Source: Promethearchaeota archaeon
GTDB lineage: Archaea > Asgardarchaeota > Heimdallarchaeia > Hodarchaeales > Hodarchaeaceae
NCBI GenBank assembly: GCA_048938105.1
Contig: JBHLMN010000017.1
Location: 64,001-128,000, forward strand
Reading direction: 5' to 3'
Length of the DNA: 64,000 nt
The position numbers and the translations under genes were made by a program. The notes beneath the pieces are model-generated. The model was not told the DNA's origin. It ran no database searches and saw only the letters and a list, made by a program, of their open reading frames with translations. Shown in pieces: positions 31,585-44,911 of the stretch (positions are counted from its first letter, which is position 1; each line of letters begins with the position of its first letter).

Positions 31585-32262
31585 TTAGAACCAGACCAAA
31601 ATTTCAGATAATTTCTTTCTTTTTATATCAGGAACGGTTACATCTTCTTTTGGAAATCCAATAGGCATTATAACAAACGCTTTCTCGTTTTTAGGCCGTT
31701 TTAAAAGATTTCGTAGAAAATTCATACTGATAGGTGTGTGTGTTAATGTTGCTAAACCTGCATTATGGATGGCCATGATGAGTATCCCAACAGCAATTCC
31801 AACACTCTTAGTTACGTAATAATTTTTTCGTTTGTTATTGAATTCATCCAAATGATATTTTTGTTGAAAAACAACTATTAGATAGGGAGCTATTTCTAGA
31901 AACGGTTTTCTCCAAGTTGTTCCTAAAGGAGCTAAGTCTTGACGCCACTCCTCTGATATTTTACGTTCGTAAAATTCTTTTTCTTCAAGTTCTGCAGCTT
32001 CTCGGATCTTATGTTTGAGAACAGGATCACTGACAATAACAAATGTCCAGGGTTGTTTATTTGCTCCTGAGGGGGCCGTACCAGCAGTTTTGATAATATT
32101 CTTAATGATTTCTCGTGGAAAAGGCTTATCTGAAAAATCTCGTATTGATCTACGAGAATTGGCAAGATGATACATTTCTTGAGCTCTTCTACTCATATCC
32201 TCCTTGGAATATGTTTGAAAGTGATAGGGAATAAATGGATACTTATTTTCCATTGATCTCAC
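31585..32262 (-). CDS. Iodotyrosine deiodinase-like nitroreductase
   Basis: RRSIRDFS, AGTAPSGANKQPW, lid EEKEFY...LGTTWRKPFLEIAP, SVGIAVG, GLATLTHTP. Confidence 0.88.
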   Translation of the reverse strand: MRSMENKYPFIPYHFQTYSKEDMSRRAQEMYHLANSRRSIRDFSDKPFPREIIKNIIKTAGTAPSGANKQPWTFVIVSDPVLKHKIREAAELEEKEFYERKISEEWRQDLAPLGTTWRKPFLEIAPYLIVVFQQKYHLDEFNNKRKNYYVTKSVGIAVGILIMAIHNAGLATLTHTPISMNFLRNLLKRPKNEKAFVIMPIGFPKEDVTVPDIKRKKLSEILVWF

Positions 32263-32381: not shown

Positions 32382-33980
32382 ATGGATCCCAAAGAAAAAA
32401 GATTTTTATCAGAAATTAGTGATATTTCAGGTCAAAAACTACTAAAAGTCGATAAAGTGGGATATGGAAGAAATGGTTATGTTGAGAAGCGTAATCGTAT
32501 AATAAAATTATCCATTTCCAATCTAAAACTCTATTATATTCCAGAAAGTATAGAGAATTTAAATGAACTAAAAGCTCTTCATATGGGGGGAAATTATCTA
32601 ACTAAAATATCAGACCCGATCCTAACCCTAAGGAATTTGGAAATTCTAGAAGCTTGGGACAATCGGATTGAATCAATTCCTAATGATATTGGAGTTTTGG
32701 AAAAAGTTTGGCGATTACATCTCGCAGGAAATAAAATAACCGAGCTTCCGTTTTCTATTGGTAATCTGCCAATGAAGAAGCTGTATCTCAAACATAACAA
32801 TGTTAGTTATGTTCCCGAAAGTATTGGGAACTGGATAAACCTCGATGTTTTTGGTTTACCTCTCAATAATCTTCCCTCACTACCAGAAACTATTAATGGT
32901 TGGAAAAACGTCCGTGTAATCTCAGTTTGGCAAAATAAGCTTAGAACGTTACCAGATGTTCAACTCAACGTTAAAGAATTACGAATTAATAATAATTATT
33001 TTACAGAAGTACCTCCTCGGGTGTACGAGATCAAACAATTAAGGAAACTTTGGTTGAATAGTAATCAATTGACAGAGATACCAGAAATTCCAAGAGGACA
33101 TCTTCAAAATTTATGGTTTCTAGATTTACAGAATAATCTCCTTTCTACATTACCTAAGTCCCTTCAGCAATTACCTAACCTCCGTGATTTAAGACTCTCA
33201 GGTAACCTATTTGATTCCTATCCAAACTGGTTGGATTCTCTTAAAGGTTATAAAGTTGATACCACGACTCATAAGCGACAAGTAAAACAACCAGATTATA
33301 TTGGAGTCAAGAAATATGTGAAATATCTTGAAGATAATCACTTACCAATAGAACACTTAGTAGAGATCAAGCGACTCCAGAGATATCTCGAGAATGAGAA
33401 AGGTTTCTCCAGAATTGTGAAAGCAAAGGCTGATGATGTTAAAGATTATATTGCACAAGGAGGTATCACAGCTTTTGCATTGAGATCTCTATATCTATAT
33501 TTCTCTTGGCTTCAGGATTATCCATTACGTCGAATTATCAAAGAAGAATTAGAGAATTTTGCACAGATAATGAGTATCAATCTTCAAGATGTCAGAAGGC
33601 TTGTTGAGGAATCACAGGTTGTGACATCATTATTAACAGTAGACGGAATAGAAGAAAAGACTCCTAATATTGTTTCTCAACCACCACAAGTTGTAGAGAA
33701 AATTGAGGGGGATGAATGGGAGTCTTTCAAAACCAAACTAGATAAAACATCTATAAAAGCGTTAGAAATTCTCTTAAAGGCTTCAAAACCTAAAAACGCA
33801 CTTAAAAAATTCGCTGATGGCCAAAACAGACTCCCAGAAACCCTTCTTGAATCTATTAATGAATTAGCATTGGAAATGATTGGTGATCTACTCATTGACC
33901 AAGAGACCTGTCAAATCACAGAAGTTAATTATAGAGAGAAATTACTTGAAATTTTCTTTAGAAAAGGGAAAGTAGAATAA
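32382..33980 (+). CDS. Leucine-rich-repeat protein with C-terminal TerB_C-like domain
   Basis: About 10-11 LxxLxLxxNxLxxLP repeats. C-terminus INLQDVRRLVEESQVVTSLL...LPETLLESINELALEMIGDLLID parallels the C-terminus of the next gene. Confidence 0.85.
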   Translation: MDPKEKRFLSEISDISGQKLLKVDKVGYGRNGYVEKRNRIIKLSISNLKLYYIPESIENLNELKALHMGGNYLTKISDPILTLRNLEILEAWDNRIESIPNDIGVLEKVWRLHLAGNKITELPFSIGNLPMKKLYLKHNNVSYVPESIGNWINLDVFGLPLNNLPSLPETINGWKNVRVISVWQNKLRTLPDVQLNVKELRINNNYFTEVPPRVYEIKQLRKLWLNSNQLTEIPEIPRGHLQNLWFLDLQNNLLSTLPKSLQQLPNLRDLRLSGNLFDSYPNWLDSLKGYKVDTTTHKRQVKQPDYIGVKKYVKYLEDNHLPIEHLVEIKRLQRYLENEKGFSRIVKAKADDVKDYIAQGGITAFALRSLYLYFSWLQDYPLRRIIKEELENFAQIMSINLQDVRRLVEESQVVTSLLTVDGIEEKTPNIVSQPPQVVEKIEGDEWESFKTKLDKTSIKALEILLKASKPKNALKKFADGQNRLPETLLESINELALEMIGDLLIDQETCQITEVNYREKLLEIFFRKGKVE

Positions 33981-34260: not shown

Positions 34261-37200
34261 ATGTCAACAGCTATAACAATCGTTACGATGAAGGCTAGAG
34301 ATAAAGAACAGAAAATAGGAGACGCTCCATTAAGAATTCCAAAAAGATTCACAGATGTTTTTCCTGTGAAAACAAAAACAGTTATTATGGCTTGTCAAGG
34401 AAATTATACCCCTGAAATAGGAGATTATATATCTTTTCAGCTTTCTTCTGAAGACTCCTTAACCCACAAAGAATCTTCAGCTGAATTGTTTGTTCAAATT
34501 GATAAAATAACCTCATTTGAAAAAATATTATCTACTGATATTACTCAAGAGGAAATCGGATCAATTCTCGAAAGTTCTCCGAAGAGAATGGTTTGGATAG
34601 AAGGAATTGTCCTTGGATACTATTCTCCAAGTCGAAAAAGAATTTTAATGCCAAAAAATTCCCTTATAGGAATGATAGGAGAATTTACTGATTCAGAATC
34701 TATTAAGATTTTTATAAACCTGTATATGGAATGTCTATTTCGCACATTCCCCCTTAAACTAATAAATTATTTAGTCTATAACTCAATCCAAGGAAGTCAG
34801 TTTTGTCAAAAAGGTAATAACAAGCTTTTAGAAGAAGTGATTCCTAAAATCCTAAAGAACATCGATGACTATTTCTTAAAGACAGAAACTAAAGATCTTC
34901 TTAATGTATTTACACAACAAACGAATTTTACCATTTCGAAAGAAACAGAAGATATTAATGATATCAAACATGAATATATTAATTGGCTTGCTTCTAATAA
35001 ACCAATGGTCGATTTCATAACTGATATATTGAAATATACTGAGAAAAAATTAAGTTTAATATTAAAATACCGAGGGAAGGTGGAAGTAAATCCAAGGCCA
35101 CTTAATAGTCATATCAGAAAAATAATTCAAACAGAACTTAAAAAATATGAAACAGGAGTACACCCAAAAAGGGAGACAAATCTAAAACAGCCAGTTTTTG
35201 CTGAATTTGAAATTGGATTCAGTCCCGAACAACAAGTCAAAATATCGGTCATAGAACCCGAATTGCAATCTAAGGTCAGGAAAACCGATCGGAAACCAGA
35301 CTCCATCAAAACCAATGAAAAGCGAGAAGATATTCGTGAACTTGAAGCTAAGATGAAACTCGCTGCTCATTCTCTGGACTTTAAAAAAGCATCCAAAATT
35401 CGAGAGAAAATTGAAGAAATAAAAAAAGAAAATATCGATAGAGAAATAGAAAAACAGCCTTCTGATTTTGAGGCACCTTCAGCAAAGAAACTTCTTAGAA
35501 CACCCAAATTCGTACCATTCGATCAATACTGGCCAACCTTAGATACAATGAATGAAGATCAAAGAAATTGGTACGATTATTGGGTGTCAGAAGCCGAAAA
35601 TGGACATTATTATCCGACTGATATATCTTATATTTTCTTATATATCTATCAAACACTTGATTATGAAGATAAAGAAAAAGGGTATCGTACATTACGAGAT
35701 ATTTGGATCCATTATCGGAGAGAACATCCCAAACTGGATCGGTACTTGATTGATTGGATAACAGACTATGTCCTTCTTCATAAATGCCATTATGATCAAA
35801 GGACTATACTAAAGGAATTAATCAAATTTCACTCAAAATACACAGTCGAATGTCTTGATTCTATATTAACATTATTCCCCCCTCGCTCATTTAAAGAAAT
35901 GCCTATAGATTGGATTGATGTTCTGGCAAATAATAGTATCAAAAGTAGTTCATTTTATATGTCGAAGCCCAATGTCATGAACACAATAATCCCTGAAGTA
36001 CTTGATGCAATTGATCGATATTACCATGAGAATGAAAATATAGGTTTATTAGAGAAATTTAAACCCGATAAAGTTACACGGTTCGTCTTTGATCGTGCCC
36101 TCAAGGATGAAAGTTATCTTACTAAGACTATTGAAGTTTTATCTTACACAAAATCCCTATCTCTTCTTGTTTTCATCTCTGAGGTTGTAAGAACAACAGA
36201 GACTAAACTCCGTAAGTACTATCGTTTTCCAGCCCTTCCTCATATTTGTATATTAGAAAGAGAAATTGAAAAAGTAATTGAAACCACTTTTACGAAGTTT
36301 ATCAGTGAGTTGAGTTTAACCGAAGGTGAAACACAATTATCCTTCATCGACGCAGCGCAAAAATATGTTAATAGAGTCGAGAATGAACCTGAAAAAAAAC
36401 CGAAATTGTACCAGTTTCAACCTAATTATCAAGATATGACTAAATCTCAATTGAAATGGTATTTCTATTGGCGTAACCAGGTTAGGAACGGAAATTTTCT
36501 CCCTACTCAAATTGGATACATTATATTGTATATCTATGAAATAATCAATGATATTGGAATTCAAAATCATCAAGAGGGTTATAAACGACTATCAGCAATC
36601 TGGGAATATTACCGTATCGATAATCCCGAGTTAGACGAATATTTCCCTGAATGGATAGCGGAATATGCGATTCTAAATCAAATACCTGTTGATAATCTCG
36701 AAGAACTCTATTATAAGATTTTAAATAGATTAGATAGAAGAGAACAAAGAGATCTTCGATATGAATTAACAGAACTTTTACTTTCTCAATACAAACATGA
36801 AGCTTTTAATAAAATTCCAATCAAAATGATTTATGAGCTTGTTGGTTATACAAATTTTCTCCCCTATACACGATTAAATGACACAGTTCGAAATACGATA
36901 GATCAGCATGTAAATACAATACTAAATGAAGTAAATTCTTACTATTTACAAAAGTACAAAAAAGGATTGCTAGATTGCTTCAGTCCAACCAAAAAACGGA
37001 GAATCCCCTTTGTTCTTGCTCGATATTTTGGTGACACTGATATATTAGAGGTAAAAGGTTACTCACGGCAATTTTTGAATTTTTTAGACAATATAATAAG
37101 ATTTATCCAGAATCGATTCCGTGATATTGAATTAGATACAACTAAAACCCGATTGAAGGTTGTTATTCCCGATCCTGAAGTTGAAGCACTAATTGATTAT

Positions 37201-37710
37201 TATTTCATTGACAACCTAAATGCCACAAACATCATGCCTAAATATTCAAAGATTGCATTACAGGTTCAAAGTGGCAATTTAGGCGTGGATCAATCTAAAA
37301 TAAAGGCTTTAACCGAGGAATCCGAGGAAATTCAATCCCTCTTAACAACCACCGAGATTGAGCAGGAAGAAGCTCTACCAGAGTTAGAAATGATTCAAAT
37401 AGAAATTAAAAAACCAATTAATAAAGAATCTGTTCAGGAAGCAGAAACAAGCGAATCAGATGAGTTGGAGCTGTTTCGATCAAGATTGACTGATCTCCAA
37501 TTAGAAGTTTTGAGGATCTTAATAGTCAGTAAAAAGCCAAAAGAACAGTTAGACCAACTAGCAGAACAAACGGGTACTTTACCAGAAGCAATGATAGAAT
37601 CCATTAACGAAATCGCGCTTGAGATAATAGATGATATCATAATTGATTCTGAACTTCTCAACATTATTGATGAGTATTTGGATAGGATAAAGACGATTAT
37701 CAAGATATAA
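34261..37710 (+). CDS. Shango SngA-like protein (two TerB_N-like units + TerB_C) with N-terminal HAS-barrel-like and UVR modules
   Basis: YWPTLDTMNEDQRNWYDYW...DISYIFLYIY and FQPNYQDMTKSQLKWYFYW...QIGYIILYIYEIIN. C-terminal LPEAMIESINEIALEIIDDIIID. UVR-like ELEAKMKLAAHSLDFKKASKIREKI. Confidence 0.8.
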   Translation: MSTAITIVTMKARDKEQKIGDAPLRIPKRFTDVFPVKTKTVIMACQGNYTPEIGDYISFQLSSEDSLTHKESSAELFVQIDKITSFEKILSTDITQEEIGSILESSPKRMVWIEGIVLGYYSPSRKRILMPKNSLIGMIGEFTDSESIKIFINLYMECLFRTFPLKLINYLVYNSIQGSQFCQKGNNKLLEEVIPKILKNIDDYFLKTETKDLLNVFTQQTNFTISKETEDINDIKHEYINWLASNKPMVDFITDILKYTEKKLSLILKYRGKVEVNPRPLNSHIRKIIQTELKKYETGVHPKRETNLKQPVFAEFEIGFSPEQQVKISVIEPELQSKVRKTDRKPDSIKTNEKREDIRELEAKMKLAAHSLDFKKASKIREKIEEIKKENIDREIEKQPSDFEAPSAKKLLRTPKFVPFDQYWPTLDTMNEDQRNWYDYWVSEAENGHYYPTDISYIFLYIYQTLDYEDKEKGYRTLRDIWIHYRREHPKLDRYLIDWITDYVLLHKCHYDQRTILKELIKFHSKYTVECLDSILTLFPPRSFKEMPIDWIDVLANNSIKSSSFYMSKPNVMNTIIPEVLDAIDRYYHENENIGLLEKFKPDKVTRFVFDRALKDESYLTKTIEVLSYTKSLSLLVFISEVVRTTETKLRKYYRFPALPHICILEREIEKVIETTFTKFISELSLTEGETQLSFIDAAQKYVNRVENEPEKKPKLYQFQPNYQDMTKSQLKWYFYWRNQVRNGNFLPTQIGYIILYIYEIINDIGIQNHQEGYKRLSAIWEYYRIDNPELDEYFPEWIAEYAILNQIPVDNLEELYYKILNRLDRREQRDLRYELTELLLSQYKHEAFNKIPIKMIYELVGYTNFLPYTRLNDTVRNTIDQHVNTILNEVNSYYLQKYKKGLLDCFSPTKKRRIPFVLARYFGDTDILEVKGYSRQFLNFLDNIIRFIQNRFRDIELDTTKTRLKVVIPDPEVEALIDYYFIDNLNATNIMPKYSKIALQVQSGNLGVDQSKIKALTEESEEIQSLLTTTEIEQEEALPELEMIQIEIKKPINKESVQEAETSESDELELFRSRLTDLQLEVLRILIVSKKPKEQLDQLAEQTGTLPEAMIESINEIALEIIDDIIIDSELLNIIDEYLDRIKTIIKI

Positions 37711-37734
37711 ATACCTAAAGGACGCATTGTAACA

Positions 37735-39066
37735 ATGTCAAAGAAAAGAATCCCACAACGTGTATCAGCTACAATTCTAAAATCCTTGAGTGCTGGAGTG
37801 GTACCCCGTATAGGTCTAGAACATATTGCTGTAGGTCGAAAAGAGGAAATAGAATCATTATTGGAAGATTTGGAAAATATTGAGGTAGGAAGCGCAGCTT
37901 TTCGATTTTTTATTGGACGATATGGATCTGGTAAGAGTTTCTTAATTCAGTTGCTAAGGAATTATGCGATGGATCGTGATTTCGTTGTTGCTGATGTTGA
38001 TTTATCCCCAGCTCGACGATTCATTGGCGGGGGAAATAAAGGCGTTGCTACATATCGTGAACTTATTACAAATATGTCCACAAAAACACGTCCTAGTGGT
38101 GGAGCATTAACAGCAATCTTGGAAAAATGGATCTCCAAAATTCAATCCATGGTAATCACTGAAAAAGGGATCAAACTTCAAGATCCTGTTTTTGTGGATT
38201 TGGTGGAAACAGAGATAATTAATGCTGTAAACAACATCAAGGACTTAGTTCATGGGTTTGATTTCGCAACAGTTATCTCAACATACTGGCGTGGGCACAA
38301 ACTTGGTGAGGAAGAAACGAAAGAAAATGCTCTTAGATGGTTACGAGGGGAATATACCACAAAAACAGAGGCACGAAACGCTATAACAAATGTTAGTGTC
38401 ATTGTCGATGATGATTCATGGTACGATTATATCAAGTTAATGGCGCGATTTGTCACTGAAATTGGATATAAAGGACTATTAGTGTTTTTTGATGAGGCTG
38501 TGAACCTTTATAAGATCACCCATACTCAATCAAGAACCAATAATTATGAGAAACTTTTAACAATGTATAACGACACCATGCAAGGAAAAGCTGAGTACAT
38601 TGGAATTTTTGTTGGTGGTACACCTCAATTTCTCGAAGATCGAAGGAGAGGCCTCTATAGCTATGAAGCACTACATTCACGTCTTGTTGAGAGTCGGTTT
38701 ACCAAAAATGGATTACGTGATATTTCAGGCCCTGTCATTAAGCTAGAACGTTTATCCTTAGAAGAGATTTTTGTACTATTAACTCGTGTTATGAACATTC
38801 ATGCCCTCCACTATAAATATGAAGCTAATTTAACAAATGATGAACTTCAAGAATTCATTAAAATAATAGTTAGCCGAATTGGGGCCGATAAACTGCTTAC
38901 TCCACGAGAATTTGTCCGAGAATTTATTATTTTATTAAATATCCTTCGGAGGAACCCAGAAAAATCCTTTTTAGGATTAATTCAAGGAGAAGATTTCAAA
39001 CCACAAGCTCCAAGCCAAGTAGAGGAATCCGTTAAAGGAACAGAATATGAGGAATTTACCTTATGA
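37735..39066 (+). CDS. DUF2791/BrxD-family P-loop ATPase (Shango SngB-like)
   Basis: SLSAGVVPRIGLEHIAVGR, Walker A GRYGSGKS, NALRWLRGE, Walker B LVFFDEAVNL, GLYSYEALHSRL, LTPREFVREF. Confidence 0.9.
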   Translation: MSKKRIPQRVSATILKSLSAGVVPRIGLEHIAVGRKEEIESLLEDLENIEVGSAAFRFFIGRYGSGKSFLIQLLRNYAMDRDFVVADVDLSPARRFIGGGNKGVATYRELITNMSTKTRPSGGALTAILEKWISKIQSMVITEKGIKLQDPVFVDLVETEIINAVNNIKDLVHGFDFATVISTYWRGHKLGEEETKENALRWLRGEYTTKTEARNAITNVSVIVDDDSWYDYIKLMARFVTEIGYKGLLVFFDEAVNLYKITHTQSRTNNYEKLLTMYNDTMQGKAEYIGIFVGGTPQFLEDRRRGLYSYEALHSRLVESRFTKNGLRDISGPVIKLERLSLEEIFVLLTRVMNIHALHYKYEANLTNDELQEFIKIIVSRIGADKLLTPREFVREFIILLNILRRNPEKSFLGLIQGEDFKPQAPSQVEESVKGTEYEEFTL

Positions 39067-41297
39067 GTGATGCTATTTTCAATCGTTTTCCTGCATTTAT
39101 TCAAGAATGGATTTACTCGCATGGATGGGAGGAATTACGTGAAATTCAGGTTGCTTCTGCAAATGTAATTTTTAATACAAACGCTCATGTATTGTTGGCA
39201 ACTGGAACTGCCAGTGGGAAAACGGAAGCAGCTTTTTTTCCTGCATTAACATTGATTTATGAAGATCCTCCTGCAAGTATTGGTATCCTTTACATCTCAC
39301 CCTTGAAAGCTTTAATTAATGACCAATTTAATCGCATAGAGGAGTTGTTAGAAGAAGCAGAGATCTCCACTTGGCCCTGGCATGGAGATATTCCTCGAAA
39401 TCTGAAAAGAAAATTACTCGAAAATCCTAATGGAGTTCTTCAAATTACGCCTGAATCTATGGAAAGTTTACTAATAAATAGACACCAAGATCTTCGGAGA
39501 ATGTTTGGAGATCTTCGATTTGTGATAATAGACGAAGTACACGTTTTTATGAATGCAGAGAGAGGAACTCAAATCCTATGTCAATTAGAACGTCTTGGAA
39601 ACATCATTGGATATCATCCCCGTCGTATAGGTCTGTCAGCAACTTTAAGCGATTATAGCTCTGCAGAAAAGTGGTTAAGTTCAGGAACAACCATTTCAAT
39701 TAATACTCCGAAAGTACAAGGATTAATCAAAAGAATTAGATTGGCTGTTGAGAATTTCATTGATCCTAATCCGAACCCTGCTGGAATAATGCAGTATGGT
39801 GAAGGGGGCGAATTAGTTGCCCCAGCTTCAGAACCCTCTTCCGAACCATATCCCTCAAATATGTATTTATTTGATCAAACGTTAAATGTTCAGTGTTTAA
39901 TCTTTACTAACACCCGAGAACGAGCGGAAAGCACAATTAATGCCCTTAGGGCAATTGCTGATCAAAAACGATATCCAAATAGGTACTATGTTCATCATGG
40001 GAGTATTTCTGCTTCTCTAAGGGAGGAAGCTGAATCAATTATGAAAACTGGAGACATCCCTTCTGTTACGGCATGTTCTGTTACGTTGGAATTAGGCATT
40101 GATATTGGATCCTTGGAAAGAATTATTCAGATTGGATCCCCACGAACAGTATCCAGTTTTTTACAACGGCTAGGCCGATCAGGTCGAAAGGAAAAAGATG
40201 TTTCTGAAATCCTTTTCATTCATTCGGAAGAAGAACCTTCGGATAACAAACCATTACCTTACTTGATACCTTGGGAATTGATTCAATCTGTAGCAATCAT
40301 CAATCTTTATTTAGAAGAACGCTGGATTGAACCAATACAAGAGTTAAAATCTCCATTCAGTTTATTATATCACCAAACAATGTCTTCTCTGGCATCTGCA
40401 GGTGAACTCTCTCCTCAATCTCTTGCTCAACGAGTACTCTCCTTGACACCATTCAAGTATGTCTCTCAAGAAGAATATCGAACTCTTATTCATCATCTTA
40501 TAGAATTGAATCATATTGAACAAATTGAAGATGGAGGATTAATTGTAGGCCTTGATGGTGAACGAATTGTTCGAAACTATCGATTTTATGCGGTCTTTCC
40601 TGATGTGGTAGAGTGGACGGTGAAGAACACAGAAGAATTTGATGAGATAGGTAAAATTGGGCAATTATTTCTACCAGGTGATCGGTTTCCCCTAGCAGGA
40701 TATACCTGGGAGGTTAAAGAAATCTATCCTGATCAAAAGGTGATAATTGTATCGAAAGTTGGTGGTCGAACCCGATATTTCTGGCCTGGAGGGATTGCCC
40801 CTGTTCATACTAAAATCCTTCAGAAGATGCGAAAAATCCTGTTTGAAGAAAAGATTTATCCTTACTTACAACCTGGTGCTGTTGAACGAATTCAACAGGT
40901 TAGAACATTAGCCAGAGAAGTAGAAATGGATAGACAAGTCCTTTTTCAGCTTGCTGGTCATAAATTTGTACTTCTACCTTGGGCTGGATCAATTTCGTTT
41001 CGAACAATTAGAAGAATATTGGAATTACATTCTGAAGAATTAGGGATCAGAAGTATTAGCGAACAGTCTCCCTATTTCTTTTTATTTGAAGCGGAAGACC
41101 AATCAAGAGATAGTCTTGAATCAGAGATCAAAAGATTATGTAACAGAATTGAATCACCTGCTGAGCTTATCAAAGAGGATGAAATTTTTGTCTGGCGGAA
41201 ATTTGATCAATTTATCCCGACTGATCTCCAACAACAGACATTAATGAATGACTACTTAGACTTGAAAGAAGTCAAAAGCATTATTAAGAACTGGTGA
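39063..41297 (+). CDS. Lhr-like DEAD/DEAH helicase, copy 1 (Shango SngC-like)
   Basis: TGTASGKTEAA, SPLKALINDQ, ITPES, DEVH, GLSAT, HHGS, TLELGIDIG, QRLGRSGR. ATGA overlap with the ATPase. Confidence 0.92.
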   Translation: MSDAIFNRFPAFIQEWIYSHGWEELREIQVASANVIFNTNAHVLLATGTASGKTEAAFFPALTLIYEDPPASIGILYISPLKALINDQFNRIEELLEEAEISTWPWHGDIPRNLKRKLLENPNGVLQITPESMESLLINRHQDLRRMFGDLRFVIIDEVHVFMNAERGTQILCQLERLGNIIGYHPRRIGLSATLSDYSSAEKWLSSGTTISINTPKVQGLIKRIRLAVENFIDPNPNPAGIMQYGEGGELVAPASEPSSEPYPSNMYLFDQTLNVQCLIFTNTRERAESTINALRAIADQKRYPNRYYVHHGSISASLREEAESIMKTGDIPSVTACSVTLELGIDIGSLERIIQIGSPRTVSSFLQRLGRSGRKEKDVSEILFIHSEEEPSDNKPLPYLIPWELIQSVAIINLYLEERWIEPIQELKSPFSLLYHQTMSSLASAGELSPQSLAQRVLSLTPFKYVSQEEYRTLIHHLIELNHIEQIEDGGLIVGLDGERIVRNYRFYAVFPDVVEWTVKNTEEFDEIGKIGQLFLPGDRFPLAGYTWEVKEIYPDQKVIIVSKVGGRTRYFWPGGIAPVHTKILQKMRKILFEEKIYPYLQPGAVERIQQVRTLAREVEMDRQVLFQLAGHKFVLLPWAGSISFRTIRRILELHSEELGIRSISEQSPYFFLFEAEDQSRDSLESEIKRLCNRIESPAELIKEDEIFVWRKFDQFIPTDLQQQTLMNDYLDLKEVKSIIKNW

Positions 41298-43579
41298 GGG
41301 ACCTGGCCTCAGCTCAATTTTATCGACTTGCTCCATGGATTCAAGAGTGGATTTATAGACAACAATGGGAGGTTTTTAGACCAATTCAAGAAGAGGCCTG
41401 TAAAGTCATTTTCGATACTCCTCATCATCTCCTATTAGCAACTGGAACTGCCAGTGGGAAGACCGAAGCTGCATTATTTCCTATCCTGACTCTATTAGAT
41501 CAAAATCCTTCTGCAACTATTGGTGTTTTATACATTGGACCATTAAAAGCTCTTATTAATGATCAATTCCAGCGAGTTGAAGATCTCCTCCGAGAAGCGG
41601 ATATAAAAGTTTGGCGTTGGCACGGAGATGTACCACAGAGCTACAAAACCAAATTAGTTCGAAATCCAAACGGATTACTGCAAATCACTCCAGAATCATT
41701 AGAAAGCTTGTTGATTAATCGCACAACTGATTTACGTAGACTCTTTGGTGATTTAAGATTCATCATTATTGATGAAGTACATGCATTCATGCCTCAACTA
41801 TCGGATCGCGGAAGACAAGTAATTTGTCAACTTGAGCGGCTTCAAGAGTATATTAACCAAATTCCTCGGCGAATTGGACTCTCTGCTACACTTGGTGATT
41901 ATTCCTATGCTGAATATTGGCTTGCTTCAGGTACAAATTTCCCTGTTATAACTCCTATAACCAACGAACCCTCAAAGAAACTTCGACTTAGTATTGAACA
42001 TTTCACTGAAACAACATGGCATCGAGCAAAGATGAGAGGTCAACCCCCACCACGTGGCCTTGACCTTCCATCACATAGATGGATCTTTGATTTAACTTTA
42101 GGAAGAAAATGCATAATTTTCCAGAATGATAGAGAAAGAACTGAGCTAGTAACTCATGGATTGAGAGAAATCGCTAAATCAAAAGGATTACCAGATGTAT
42201 ATCACTCGCATCATTCATGTATAGCAGGTTTACTTAGAGAAGATGCGGAGGAGTTTTTGAAAGAAAAGAACGGGGTTCCTCATGTTGTTGCAGCAACTAT
42301 GACATTAGAGCTAGGCATTGATATATCTGATGTTGAAAGGATTATCCATGTTGATAGCCCTCATGCTGTCTCCACATTTGTACAACGTTTGGGAAGATCT
42401 GGTCGAGTAAATAACGCGTCAGAGATGTTTTTTGCTGTTTCTGAGAATCCTAAATCTCCTCGTACGCCTCTTGCATATCAACTCCCTTATCGATTATTGC
42501 AAGCCATAGCAGTTGTCCAACTCTATCTTGATGAACGATGGATTGAACCAGCACTCCCACTTAAGAAACCGTTTTCAATTTTATTTCACCAAACCATGTC
42601 GATTCTAGCTTCCGCTGGTGAACTCTCTCCTCAAGCGTTAGCTCAAAGGGTATTATCACTTTCTCCTTTCAAGAATATTACTCAGCCTGAATTTCGCGTA
42701 TTGTTAAACTACCTTATTAATAATGAGTATATTGAGCAAATTCAAGATGGTGGCTTGATTCTTGGACTAGCTGGAGAGAAGATAGTCCGAAACTACCGTT
42801 TTTATGCGGTATTTCGAGACTATGCGGTAGATTACTCAGTGAAGGAGGGGACGCGTGAGATTGGCCATATTGAACAACTACTCGAACCAGGTGATCAATT
42901 ATTAATTGGGGGGTATCCTTACCGAATAACTCAAGCTTATCCTAAACAAAAACTCATGCTAGCTGAAAAGATATCGGAAAAACCATTATATGTGTGGCCA
43001 GGGAGAATCGCTCCTGTACATACTAGAGTAGTTCAACGAATGCGACGTTCTCTCTTTGAGGAAAAATCTTATTCATTCCTTCAGAGAGGTGCACGAATTC
43101 GTCTGGAAGAAGGCCGATTATTTGCTAAAAAGCATCAATTAGATAAAAGGGTCTTATTAAAAGAGTCAAAAAACAGATATAGCCTACTACCATGGATGGG
43201 ATCCACACCGTTTAGAACACTTCTTCGTATATTAAAATTTCTGGGTCCTAACACCTTAGGGATAAATTGGGTGCAACCTGAACCTGTAACAACAACGGAT
43301 CCCCATCTTCCAGTCCATGTTATTCAATTTGAAACCAGTAGTTATAATAACGCCAATTCGCTTTATAATGACCTATACAAACTAGTAGAAAACGTTTCAG
43401 AGAAAGAGCTACACCAACTATATGATCAGTCTGAAAAATTCATTTATGAAAGATATCACCACTTATTACCAGTAGAATTACAACGGGAGGTATTAATTCA
43501 TAATTATCTGGATCTTAAAGAGGTAAAGAGTGTTATTCGTACGTGGGAGGATTATTCTATTTATTGGCAAACAGATTAA
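41294..43579 (+). CDS. Lhr-like DEAD/DEAH helicase, copy 2 (Shango SngC-like)
   Basis: Same motif set (TGTASGKT, DEVH, GLSAT, TLELGIDI, QRLGRSGR). GTGA overlap with copy 1. Confidence 0.92.
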   Translation: MRDLASAQFYRLAPWIQEWIYRQQWEVFRPIQEEACKVIFDTPHHLLLATGTASGKTEAALFPILTLLDQNPSATIGVLYIGPLKALINDQFQRVEDLLREADIKVWRWHGDVPQSYKTKLVRNPNGLLQITPESLESLLINRTTDLRRLFGDLRFIIIDEVHAFMPQLSDRGRQVICQLERLQEYINQIPRRIGLSATLGDYSYAEYWLASGTNFPVITPITNEPSKKLRLSIEHFTETTWHRAKMRGQPPPRGLDLPSHRWIFDLTLGRKCIIFQNDRERTELVTHGLREIAKSKGLPDVYHSHHSCIAGLLREDAEEFLKEKNGVPHVVAATMTLELGIDISDVERIIHVDSPHAVSTFVQRLGRSGRVNNASEMFFAVSENPKSPRTPLAYQLPYRLLQAIAVVQLYLDERWIEPALPLKKPFSILFHQTMSILASAGELSPQALAQRVLSLSPFKNITQPEFRVLLNYLINNEYIEQIQDGGLILGLAGEKIVRNYRFYAVFRDYAVDYSVKEGTREIGHIEQLLEPGDQLLIGGYPYRITQAYPKQKLMLAEKISEKPLYVWPGRIAPVHTRVVQRMRRSLFEEKSYSFLQRGARIRLEEGRLFAKKHQLDKRVLLKESKNRYSLLPWMGSTPFRTLLRILKFLGPNTLGINWVQPEPVTTTDPHLPVHVIQFETSSYNNANSLYNDLYKLVENVSEKELHQLYDQSEKFIYERYHHLLPVELQREVLIHNYLDLKEVKSVIRTWEDYSIYWQTD

Positions 43580-43651: not shown

Positions 43652-44911
43652 TTATGTTAAACGTTTAAGTTTCTCTAATACTATGTAGTAGGCTTTTTTT
43701 TCTAATTCTTCAAGTAATATGCTTTTACCATTTAAGAAGAAGTCAATAATATAGGGATGAGCTGCTTGAGGAATGCTTAATTTCTTGAATTCGCTTTTAT
43801 CCAACTCATAGACATCTTCAGGATGTTTTTCTAGAAGCCCAGCAGCTTTGTTTAATTGGTATGTTTCACCAGAAGATTTCTCTCGAATAATATTTGAGTC
43901 TACGTAGGCTGCTCTCATTAAGATTTCAACAAGTCGGAGATTATTTTCAATCCGTCCAGGGGGAATATAACGCCTAGCAGTATAGGGAAGTTTGAACTCG
44001 TGATTAAATTTGTATGCTTTTACTTCTGGATAAATGAGATTGAATTTTTTTAATTGAAAATGATCTAATGTCCCATATTTGTTATTATTGCCGTATAACT
44101 GGCGATATTTAGATAATAAATGAGGATAATGTTTTTGGATTGTACGAAAAAACCCATTCTTATTTCTCCCAGGTTTTAAGGTTAAAGACCACACATAAAC
44201 AAACTCTGCACCAGTTTTTTTCGCTTTTTGAAATAGTAAATGCATATTTTCATCTGTATCCCCAATAAATGGTAAAGGGGGATAAAAATATACCCCTGAA
44301 TGAATCCCTTCTTCTCTTAGTTTCTGAATTGCTTTAAAGCGTTCAGAGGTTGTGCTTGCGTTGGGTTCAAAAATTCTTTGAGCATCTTCGTCCGCTAATG
44401 TAATACTGAAATTTACTGCTGCATATGTTTTCTCATTTATCTTCTTAAATAAGTCTAGATCTCTCAGAACAAGTGCACTTTTTGTTAATATTTGTACAGG
44501 AACATTGTACATATAAGCAAGGTGTAATAAGGTTCGAGTCATCTTCACCTGTTTCTCTGCAGGTTGATAAACATCGCACACCCCTCCTCCAATAAACAGG
44601 ATGAAAGTTGGTTTGGGGGATCTTTTTTTTATTTTTAGATGGTCATCCAAGGTGGAACCTGATATCATTCCATGCTGTTTTAAAAATCGTTCAAGTAAGT
44701 GAGGAGCATTCCTTTTGACACGGATACGATTACCAAAGTCCTCATGCATGTGGTATACTTCAGATTTACCATCACAATACTGACAATCGTGATAGCATCC
44801 TTGATAAGGATTTAGATAGTATTCCGTCCAAGAGAAAAGTGAAGGCGAACTTTTACGCATCAGAGTCTTGGCATTATACTCTTCTACTATCATTGGGTAC
44901 TCACGTGTCAT
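43652..44911 (-). CDS. Radical SAM protein (SplB/Rv2578c-like DNA-repair family)
   Basis: LNPYQGCYHDCQYC (CxxxCxxC), DVYQPAE, ILTKSALVLRDLD, FEPNASTTSERF. Confidence 0.88.
   Translation of the reverse strand: MTREYPMIVEEYNAKTLMRKSSPSLFSWTEYYLNPYQGCYHDCQYCDGKSEVYHMHEDFGNRIRVKRNAPHLLERFLKQHGMISGSTLDDHLKIKKRSPKPTFILFIGGGVCDVYQPAEKQVKMTRTLLHLAYMYNVPVQILTKSALVLRDLDLFKKINEKTYAAVNFSITLADEDAQRIFEPNASTTSERFKAIQKLREEGIHSGVYFYPPLPFIGDTDENMHLLFQKAKKTGAEFVYVWSLTLKPGRNKNGFFRTIQKHYPHLLSKYRQLYGNNNKYGTLDHFQLKKFNLIYPEVKAYKFNHEFKLPYTARRYIPPGRIENNLRLVEILMRAAYVDSNIIREKSSGETYQLNKAAGLLEKHPEDVYELDKSEFKKLSIPQAAHPYIIDFFLNGKSILLEELEKKAYYIVLEKLKRLT

Follow-up and report, generated by a model that had tools for sequence, protein, structure and literature searches.

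The sngA gene of a Hodarchaeales-type Asgard archaeon encodes a Shango defence protein whose N-terminal part is, as predicted from sequence comparisons, a HAS barrel of the HerA type that is detached from any ATPase domain and joined to a helical module (M0) and a UVR helical hairpin. The gene (P0001; 34261..37710, plus strand, 1149 amino acids) lies in a 64,000-nucleotide stretch of DNA, hereafter the window, corresponding to positions 64,001 to 128,000 of contig JBHLMN010000017.1 (assembly GCA_048938105.1, Promethearchaeota archaeon), and we assign the locus as a five-gene Shango cluster with SngA as its putative scaffold subunit. We favour a reading, with a probability of about 0.6, in which the N-terminal head (barrel, M0 and UVR) would act as a tethered protein-association hub at an exchangeable N-terminal slot, governing self-assembly of the SngB/SngC motor or the docking of a partner.

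Shango protects bacteria against phages and consists of SngA, a TerB_N/TerB_C protein, SngB, a DUF2791 ATPase, and SngC, an Lhr-like helicase (Millman et al. 2022, 10.1101/2022.05.11.491447; Johnson et al. 2022, 10.1101/2022.11.11.516204); protection has been shown only for the E. coli and P. aeruginosa systems. A sequence-only reading of the window had described the protein as SngA-like, and this identity is borne out by the PADLOC SngA model (E 1.5e-98, 329.7 bits), by two TerB_N domains and one TerB_C domain and by the neighbouring sngB and sngC genes. The best PADLOC stretch, residues 691-1147, covers model positions 81-527 of 528. The domain order is (HAS-M0)-linker-UVR-linker-(TerB_N-M1)-(TerB_N-M2)-TerB_C, with all features on the plus strand. 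A start at M1 (34261) is favoured by an invariant MST..IV in the orthologues and by the alignment of barrel strand 1 with HerA; the public gene call (P0006, 1140 amino acids) begins at Met10 and so removes part of this strand.

The barrel was mapped to residues 1-145 (34261..34695), and its homology to the N-terminal domains of HerA was found by profile, BLASTP, hhalign and reverse searches. The HAS-barrel-like region that the sequence-only reading had placed at residues 25-150 was thereby confirmed, with its actual extent at about residues 3-145. A profile built from ten heads was run over 399 Asgard genomes, where it matched the head-bearing SngA genes and, in 15 genomes from three other families, the first ~130 residues of HerA-like proteins of ~545 residues. 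Three of these HerA candidates were examined closely; each carries a GAGKS Walker A motif and adjoins a NurA gene, and both candidates scanned with Pfam matched DUF87, the central domain of HerA. The top HerA match of the head profile (genome G128, E 4.9e-13 per genome) is a bona fide HerA, matching solved HerA proteins at 1e-52 and 1e-39. Its locus, in another Asgard family, is a complete nurA-herA-mre11-rad50 operon (L048, G128:C142 4551-11932, minus strand).

The relationship was recovered by further comparisons. Pairwise BLASTP aligned SngA residues 38-136 with residues 17-115 of the G128 HerA (8e-10); a profile of the N-terminal domain built from SngA sequences only gave 46.6 bits on the G128 HerA and 17-26 bits on the other fourteen, always at the N-terminus; and hhalign of the SngA-only against the HerA-only profile gave 98.1%, with E 7.7e-14 over 97 columns. 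In the reverse direction, the SngA head was the sole match in the source genome to residues 16-116 of the G128 HerA (E 7.6e-6). The joint alignment is co-linear from strand 1 through the last strand, with a common W..A.VLGY strand and a helical insertion between strands 4 and 5 that is common to the SngA barrel and Asgard HerA. One part of the barrel is absent from HerA, an insert of 25 residues that separates strands 1 and 2 (residues 12-37; 34294..34371), contains an invariant IPKRF motif and is modelled with low confidence.

Several searches did not reach HerA. Residues 1-350 matched no Pfam or NCBIfam family, including Pfam's own HAS-barrel model; Asgard HerA proteins, too, show only DUF87 in the same library, and as these models are too narrow we did not count the missing match against the barrel. 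An exhaustive phmmer search of residues 1-345 against 1.84 billion representatives gave 13 matches, in which the barrel was matched only in other head-bearing SngA proteins, so that the single sequence never reached HerA, and the best match of the head-only profile among the PDB sequences was at chance level (E 0.51). The source genome itself (5.85 Mb in 65 contigs) has HerA and NurA genes in three pairs, with nine DUF87 matches in total (contigs C18, C15 and C63; L033, L037, L039, L041-L043), and the SngA head profile detected no barrel in any of the nine. Two other origins were considered for the barrel. Derivation from TerB_N was rejected, with hhalign giving 0.3% and 0.1% for residues 1-115 against the two TerB_N units, and a recent copy of a resident HerA was rejected because, with filters off and a threshold as loose as E 10, the head profile still missed every HerA protein of the genome. 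We assign the barrel as a derivative of an archaeal housekeeping-type HerA, grafted onto a system known mainly from bacteria.

The predicted fold was examined with an AlphaFold2 (AF2) model of residues 1-150, calculated from an alignment with HerA sequences, which showed seven strands with a predicted local distance difference test (pLDDT) score of 76 and a predicted template modelling score of 0.73. Structural comparison against 48,161 chains placed the N-terminal barrel of S. solfataricus HerA on top (4d2i_B residues 1-111, Z 7.4, root-mean-square deviation 2.6, 80 aligned residues), followed by the N-terminal barrels of Mycoplasma G1-ATPase, TdpA, FliI, T. kodakarensis HerA and EscN and, further down, by those of HerA-DUF, yeast V1, F1-beta, D. 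radiodurans HerA and Sir2-HerA. Foldseek likewise ranked Sir2/HerA chains first for this model (probability 0.98, E 0.04).

The barrel is followed by M0 (residues 147-300; 34699..35160), an all-helical region that showed no clear fold in the AF2 model of the whole head calculated from ten sequences. Within SngA itself, residues 112-296 align with residues 499-680 (BLASTP 2e-8), and hhalign of 147-298 against 519-682 gave a probability of 94% (E 1.4e-7). Among the 1.84 billion representatives, ordinary SngA-like proteins, with TerB_N and TerB_C, match only the M0 part of the head, and these matches always fall just past the TerB_N core, at profile position ~145-155. M0 thus corresponds to Pfam TerB_N from about position 145 onward together with the region beyond, and we identify it as a third copy of M1 and M2, the helical modules found after the two TerB_N domains. 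Since M0 is paralogous to M1 and M2, the barrel occupies the place of the TerB_N N-subdomain in a third TerB_N-M unit. The presence of the barrel followed by M0, together with the lack of any DUF87 or P-loop match in Pfam scans of SngA, indicates that the protein is not a HerA but a scaffold that carries a HerA-derived barrel.

The second recognizable element of the head is a UVR helical-hairpin motif (PF02151; residues 356-390, 35326..35430), which the sequence-only reading had located at 35332-35427. The Pfam model matches residues 358-390 (35332-35430) with 26.3 bits when the full-length protein is scanned and 30.5 bits for the segment alone, above the cut-off of 21.5 bits. When all six frames of the 5.85 Mb genome were scanned with the UVR model, only three sites were returned, in UvrB, UvrC and SngA, so that the match is not a generic coiled coil. 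The core, L361...M365..AA..LDF374..A377..IR381..I, aligns with the motifs of the resident UvrB and UvrC, and the loop residues F374 and A377 are invariant in SngA; in other proteins the loop Phe and Ala form the UVR dimer interface (PMC13273187). The core motif is present in nine of the ten head-bearing proteins, across four diverged lineages and including the diverged P0014 (912 amino acids, one TerB_N unit) and P0027 (1203 amino acids), and all 15 SngA-like proteins that were checked and have no head lack it. When the UVR segments of SngA (340-405) and UvrC were co-folded, the score was 0.20 against a mark of 0.32, which speaks neither for nor against binding. The resident UvrB is encoded by a 1203-residue open reading frame (ORF) split by an intein with LAGLIDADG and helix-turn-helix domains (contig C6, L053:5018-8626, minus strand), with uvrC ~5.6 kb away (L053:14232-16079). 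The linkers that flank the hairpin are the least conserved parts of SngA, with 57% mean pairwise identity for residues 301-355 (35161..35325; pLDDT under 50) and 32% for the other, as would fit a flexibly tethered hub.

The remainder of SngA consists of TerB_N unit 1 (residues 415-520, 35503..35820, 56.6 bits), the M1 helical module (residues 521-685, 35821..36315), TerB_N unit 2 (residues 688-815, 36322..36705, 101.7 bits), the M2 helical module (residues 816-990, 36706..37230) and TerB_C (residues 994-1143, 37240..37689, 48.9-54.2 bits), with an acidic, variable stretch inside TerB_C at about residues 1031-1070; the Pfam cut-offs are 25 bits for TerB_N (PF13208) and 26.3 for TerB_C (PF15615). 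By hhalign (99.3%, E 1e-20), the units with a TerB_N are clearly paralogous to each other. Both TerB_N-like units had been noticed from the letters, with starts near 35509 and 36406 that correspond to residues 417 and 716, as had the lack of a transmembrane helix and of a central TerB domain; accordingly, the highest 19-residue Kyte-Doolittle mean is 1.44, and TerB proper (PF05099) was not matched in SngA at E values of 0.1 or below, so that of the domains associated with TerB just the N and C ones are present. TerB_C and M0 are additions to the domains listed then. A search of the PDB sequences with residues 400-1149 gave no match.

All head-bearing proteins found belong to Asgard archaea and form four diverged lineages, with relatives submitted under the names Hodarchaeales, 'Thorarchaeota', Promethearchaeota and Candidatus Hodarchaeum mangrovi. 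TerB_N was found above its cut-off in five of the 399 species-level Asgard genomes, all in the window's own genus and all with the head, and a sixth genome carries a head at a contig end. The SngA, SngB and SngC cluster is kept in four other genomes, three of which have the five-gene form (G067, G068 and G072), and the fourth (G057) has a diverged SngA, SngB and both SngC genes with no gene for a leucine-rich repeat (LRR) protein nearby. Between genomes, identity is 93-96% for SngB, 88-92% for SngC, 78-84% for the LRR protein and 71-77% for SngA; within SngA, mean pairwise identity is 58% for the barrel, the most variable folded domain, and 83-86% for TerB_N.

Outside the Asgard archaea, the nearest SngA relatives carry FHA domains (P0029-P0031, precomputed Pfam), and the N-terminus of P0028 is hydrophobic and, read from its sequence, looks like two membrane helices. 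These proteins have the same TerB_N-M-TerB_C chassis and a variable N-terminal module, although that module is FHA or an apparent membrane anchor rather than the HAS and UVR elements of the Asgard SngA. The comparison shows SngA, at the level of predicted domains, as a constant chassis (TerB_N-M, TerB_N-M, TerB_C) with a lineage-specific N-terminal head, and it suggests that the N-terminus is an exchangeable slot, filled by a transmembrane-like segment, FHA or HAS and UVR according to lineage. The sequence-only reading had called the whole modular head novel, tandem TerB_N included. Tandem TerB_N is common in the SngA family, with two or three units in several ordinary SngA-like proteins. The novel part is the ATPase-less HAS barrel joined to M0 and UVR, apparently confined to Asgard Shango systems; in the literature we found no description of a detached HAS barrel, and a full-text search combining 'HAS-barrel' and 'TerB' was empty.

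Compared with HerA, the ring ATPase of the FtsK-HerA superfamily that acts with NurA, Mre11 and Rad50 in end resection, SngA has the homologous N-terminal barrel with its strand 4-5 helical insertion, but it lacks the P-loop ATPase and helix-bundle domains, has a TerB_N-derived helical module after the barrel, and its barrel contains the insert between strands 1 and 2 and is dissimilar to the resident HerA paralogues. In HerA, the HAS barrel forms the pore collar of the ring and mediates the binding of NurA, which binds the hexameric barrel ring with each NurA protomer contacting four barrels (PMC9960219). Similarly, SngA keeps the L...M..AA..L[DE]F..A...[IV]R[DE]..I pattern of the UvrB C-terminal domain and the UvrC region that interacts with UvrB, with the interface Phe and Ala, although in SngA the motif is flanked by two variable linkers and belongs to a defence scaffold. 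In UvrB, the C-terminal hairpin dimerises and also pairs with the homologous region of UvrC (PMC10085695), and UVR domains elsewhere are flexibly tethered, general self-association hubs (PMC13273187).

In light of these properties, we propose that the head would make SngA self-associate or dock onto a partner. The proposal takes as premises that the HAS barrel serves, in every solved context, as the N-terminal collar of a ring ATPase and a docking surface for a partner nuclease, and that a UVR hairpin dimerises with another UVR hairpin; given these roles, self-association or docking is what the head would most likely do. Such association would set the manner and place of assembly of the SngB ATPase and of both SngC helicases, or the input to which they respond, and the transmembrane anchor or FHA at the same position in other SngA lineages would fit an exchangeable input or localisation module. 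The sequence-only reading had suggested a soluble scaffold linked to HerA/NurA and UvrABC or guarding them as a decoy. Its solubility, the presence of the partner genes and the docking nature of the modules hold, but the function was inferred and the resident HerA proteins are not detected by the head profile, which speaks against a decoy of them; moreover, self-association is a general function described for UVR domains (PMC13273187), which makes a role in plain assembly no less likely than a link to repair machines.

Several observations weigh against a hub of this kind. A single HAS barrel without its ATPase may fail to form a ring. Of the folded domains of SngA the barrel evolves fastest, which one would not expect of a collar with a purely structural task and which may hint at a role that faces viruses. 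In the G057/P0025 lineage the UVR is degenerate, with only a remnant of the second helix left, and the annotated start removes the first two barrel strands (L047, G057:C58 12407-15679, minus strand), so that the head is not indispensable everywhere; it may be decaying in this lineage. In the G057 gene, 43 in-frame codons upstream of the annotated start resemble barrel strands 1-2 and contain no ATG, GTG or TTG start. The structural match of the barrel is also middling, with Z under 8 from a model whose alignment contained HerA sequences, and the AF2 model of the whole head without HerA (10 sequences) has low confidence (pLDDT 56) and mixed matches. In view of these scores the assignment of the barrel rests on sequence, with the predicted fold consistent with it.

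The same fold results bear on the view that the region is a generic small beta-barrel whose likeness to HerA reflects chance or convergence. For the HerA-free model, none of the Foldseek rows reached E <= 0.001, HerA appearing only weakly, and the VIA rows were a mixture of split-barrel and HerA chains with FMN-binding split barrels at Z 5.8; these results, the sub-8 Z scores, and the failure of residues 1-350 to match Pfam or NCBIfam and of the head-only profile to find a solved structure speak for a generic barrel. Set against them, the profile-to-profile alignment over 97 columns, the confinement of the matches in all 15 genomes to the first ~130 residues of HerA proteins, the agreeing reverse search and the co-linear alignment with its common helical insertion and W..A.VLGY strand make this explanation very improbable. 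A good deal less remote, although still unlikely, is nuclease recruitment, in which the head would copy the NurA-holding surface of HerA and the UvrC-holding surface of UvrB and so supply the SngB/SngC motor, on foreign DNA, with NurA and/or UvrC of the host. Both modules dock nucleases in their native proteins (PMC9960219; PMC10085695), the source genome encodes three NurA proteins, UvrB and UvrC, its only UVR carriers are SngA, UvrB and UvrC, and no nuclease domain was detected in the five cluster proteins. Yet NurA binds a hexameric barrel ring (PMC9960219), and a lone barrel may not suffice, the SngA barrel has no detectable similarity to the resident HerA barrels, its fast evolution would be odd if the surface bound a conserved enzyme of the host, and bacterial Shango functions without such a head.

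Fast evolution would instead suit a decoy or guard, in which the head would imitate those surfaces of HerA and UvrB/UvrC at which anti-repair proteins of viruses aim, and the binding of such a protein to the head would trigger the Shango motor. SngA and the LRR protein evolve faster than SngB and SngC, the variability of the barrel is that expected of a virus-facing sensor, and sensor-type FHA modules occupy the same position in other lineages. A decoy should, however, resemble the protein that it guards, and all three resident HerA proteins escape the head profile, the nearest HerA relatives of the head belonging to other Asgard families; we know of no viral inhibitor of archaeal HerA or UvrB, and we rate this possibility below nuclease recruitment. 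That copied NurA- and UvrC-holding surfaces let an effector-less Shango borrow host repair nucleases against foreign DNA, or sense viral proteins that attack those surfaces, is an unlikely proposition. If true, it would describe a defence system wired into, or guarding, DNA repair in the archaeal lineage closest to eukaryotes, and a link to the repair nucleases, should it hold, would exemplify a coupling of immunity and DNA repair among Asgard archaea. The architecture of the head is a new clue to the assembly or triggering of Shango, and it indicates that a HAS barrel can occur apart from any ring ATPase.

The genes around sngA support the assignment of the cluster. Directly 3' of sngA lie sngB (37735..39066, plus strand), encoding a BrxC/BrxD-type (DUF2791) ATPase (PADLOC SngB 2.9e-187), sngC-1 (39063..41297, plus strand), encoding an Lhr/BrxHI-like SF2 helicase (PADLOC SngC 2.9e-225), and sngC-2 (41294..43579, plus strand), encoding a paralogous helicase (PADLOC SngC 5.9e-210), with gene ends that overlap or nearly abut; the two SngC proteins are ~50% identical and both are kept in all five related loci. 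Upstream of sngA is the conserved partner gene for the LRR protein (32382..33980, plus strand), whose C-terminal part corresponds to the C-terminal half of SngA including TerB_C and has no TerB_N in Pfam and PADLOC scans. The cluster resembles Shango in the strong matches to all three PADLOC models, in the canonical order of SngA, SngB and SngC and in having no recognisable effector nuclease, no nuclease domain having been found in its five proteins by scans with Pfam and PADLOC models. It differs in that the Asgard SngA is about twice the length of the model, with an extra TerB_N-M unit and the head of HAS barrel, M0 and UVR; in having two SngC paralogues rather than one and an additional LRR protein with the same TerB_C tail; and in its host, an Asgard archaeon; activity has been shown only for bacterial systems.

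The 11.2 kb cluster is flanked by nitroreductase and radical-SAM genes in the window (31588-32262 and 43655-44911) and in G068. In G072 the nitroreductase and radical-SAM genes are adjacent to each other, both on one side of the cluster (L045 14446-16492), and these differing flanks suggest an insertion or a local rearrangement around the cluster. In G068 (L046, G068:C84 3154-9092, opposite strand), ~6 kb separate the LRR gene from sngA and encode an SBBP beta-propeller-repeat protein, a 191-amino-acid ORF and a family-5 solute-binding protein, so that the LRR gene and sngA need not be co-transcribed. Finally, a 97-amino-acid antisense ORF (37434-37727, minus strand) overlaps both the end of sngA and the beginning of sngB and looks conserved in two relatives, most likely owing only to the conserved coding sequence on the opposite strand.

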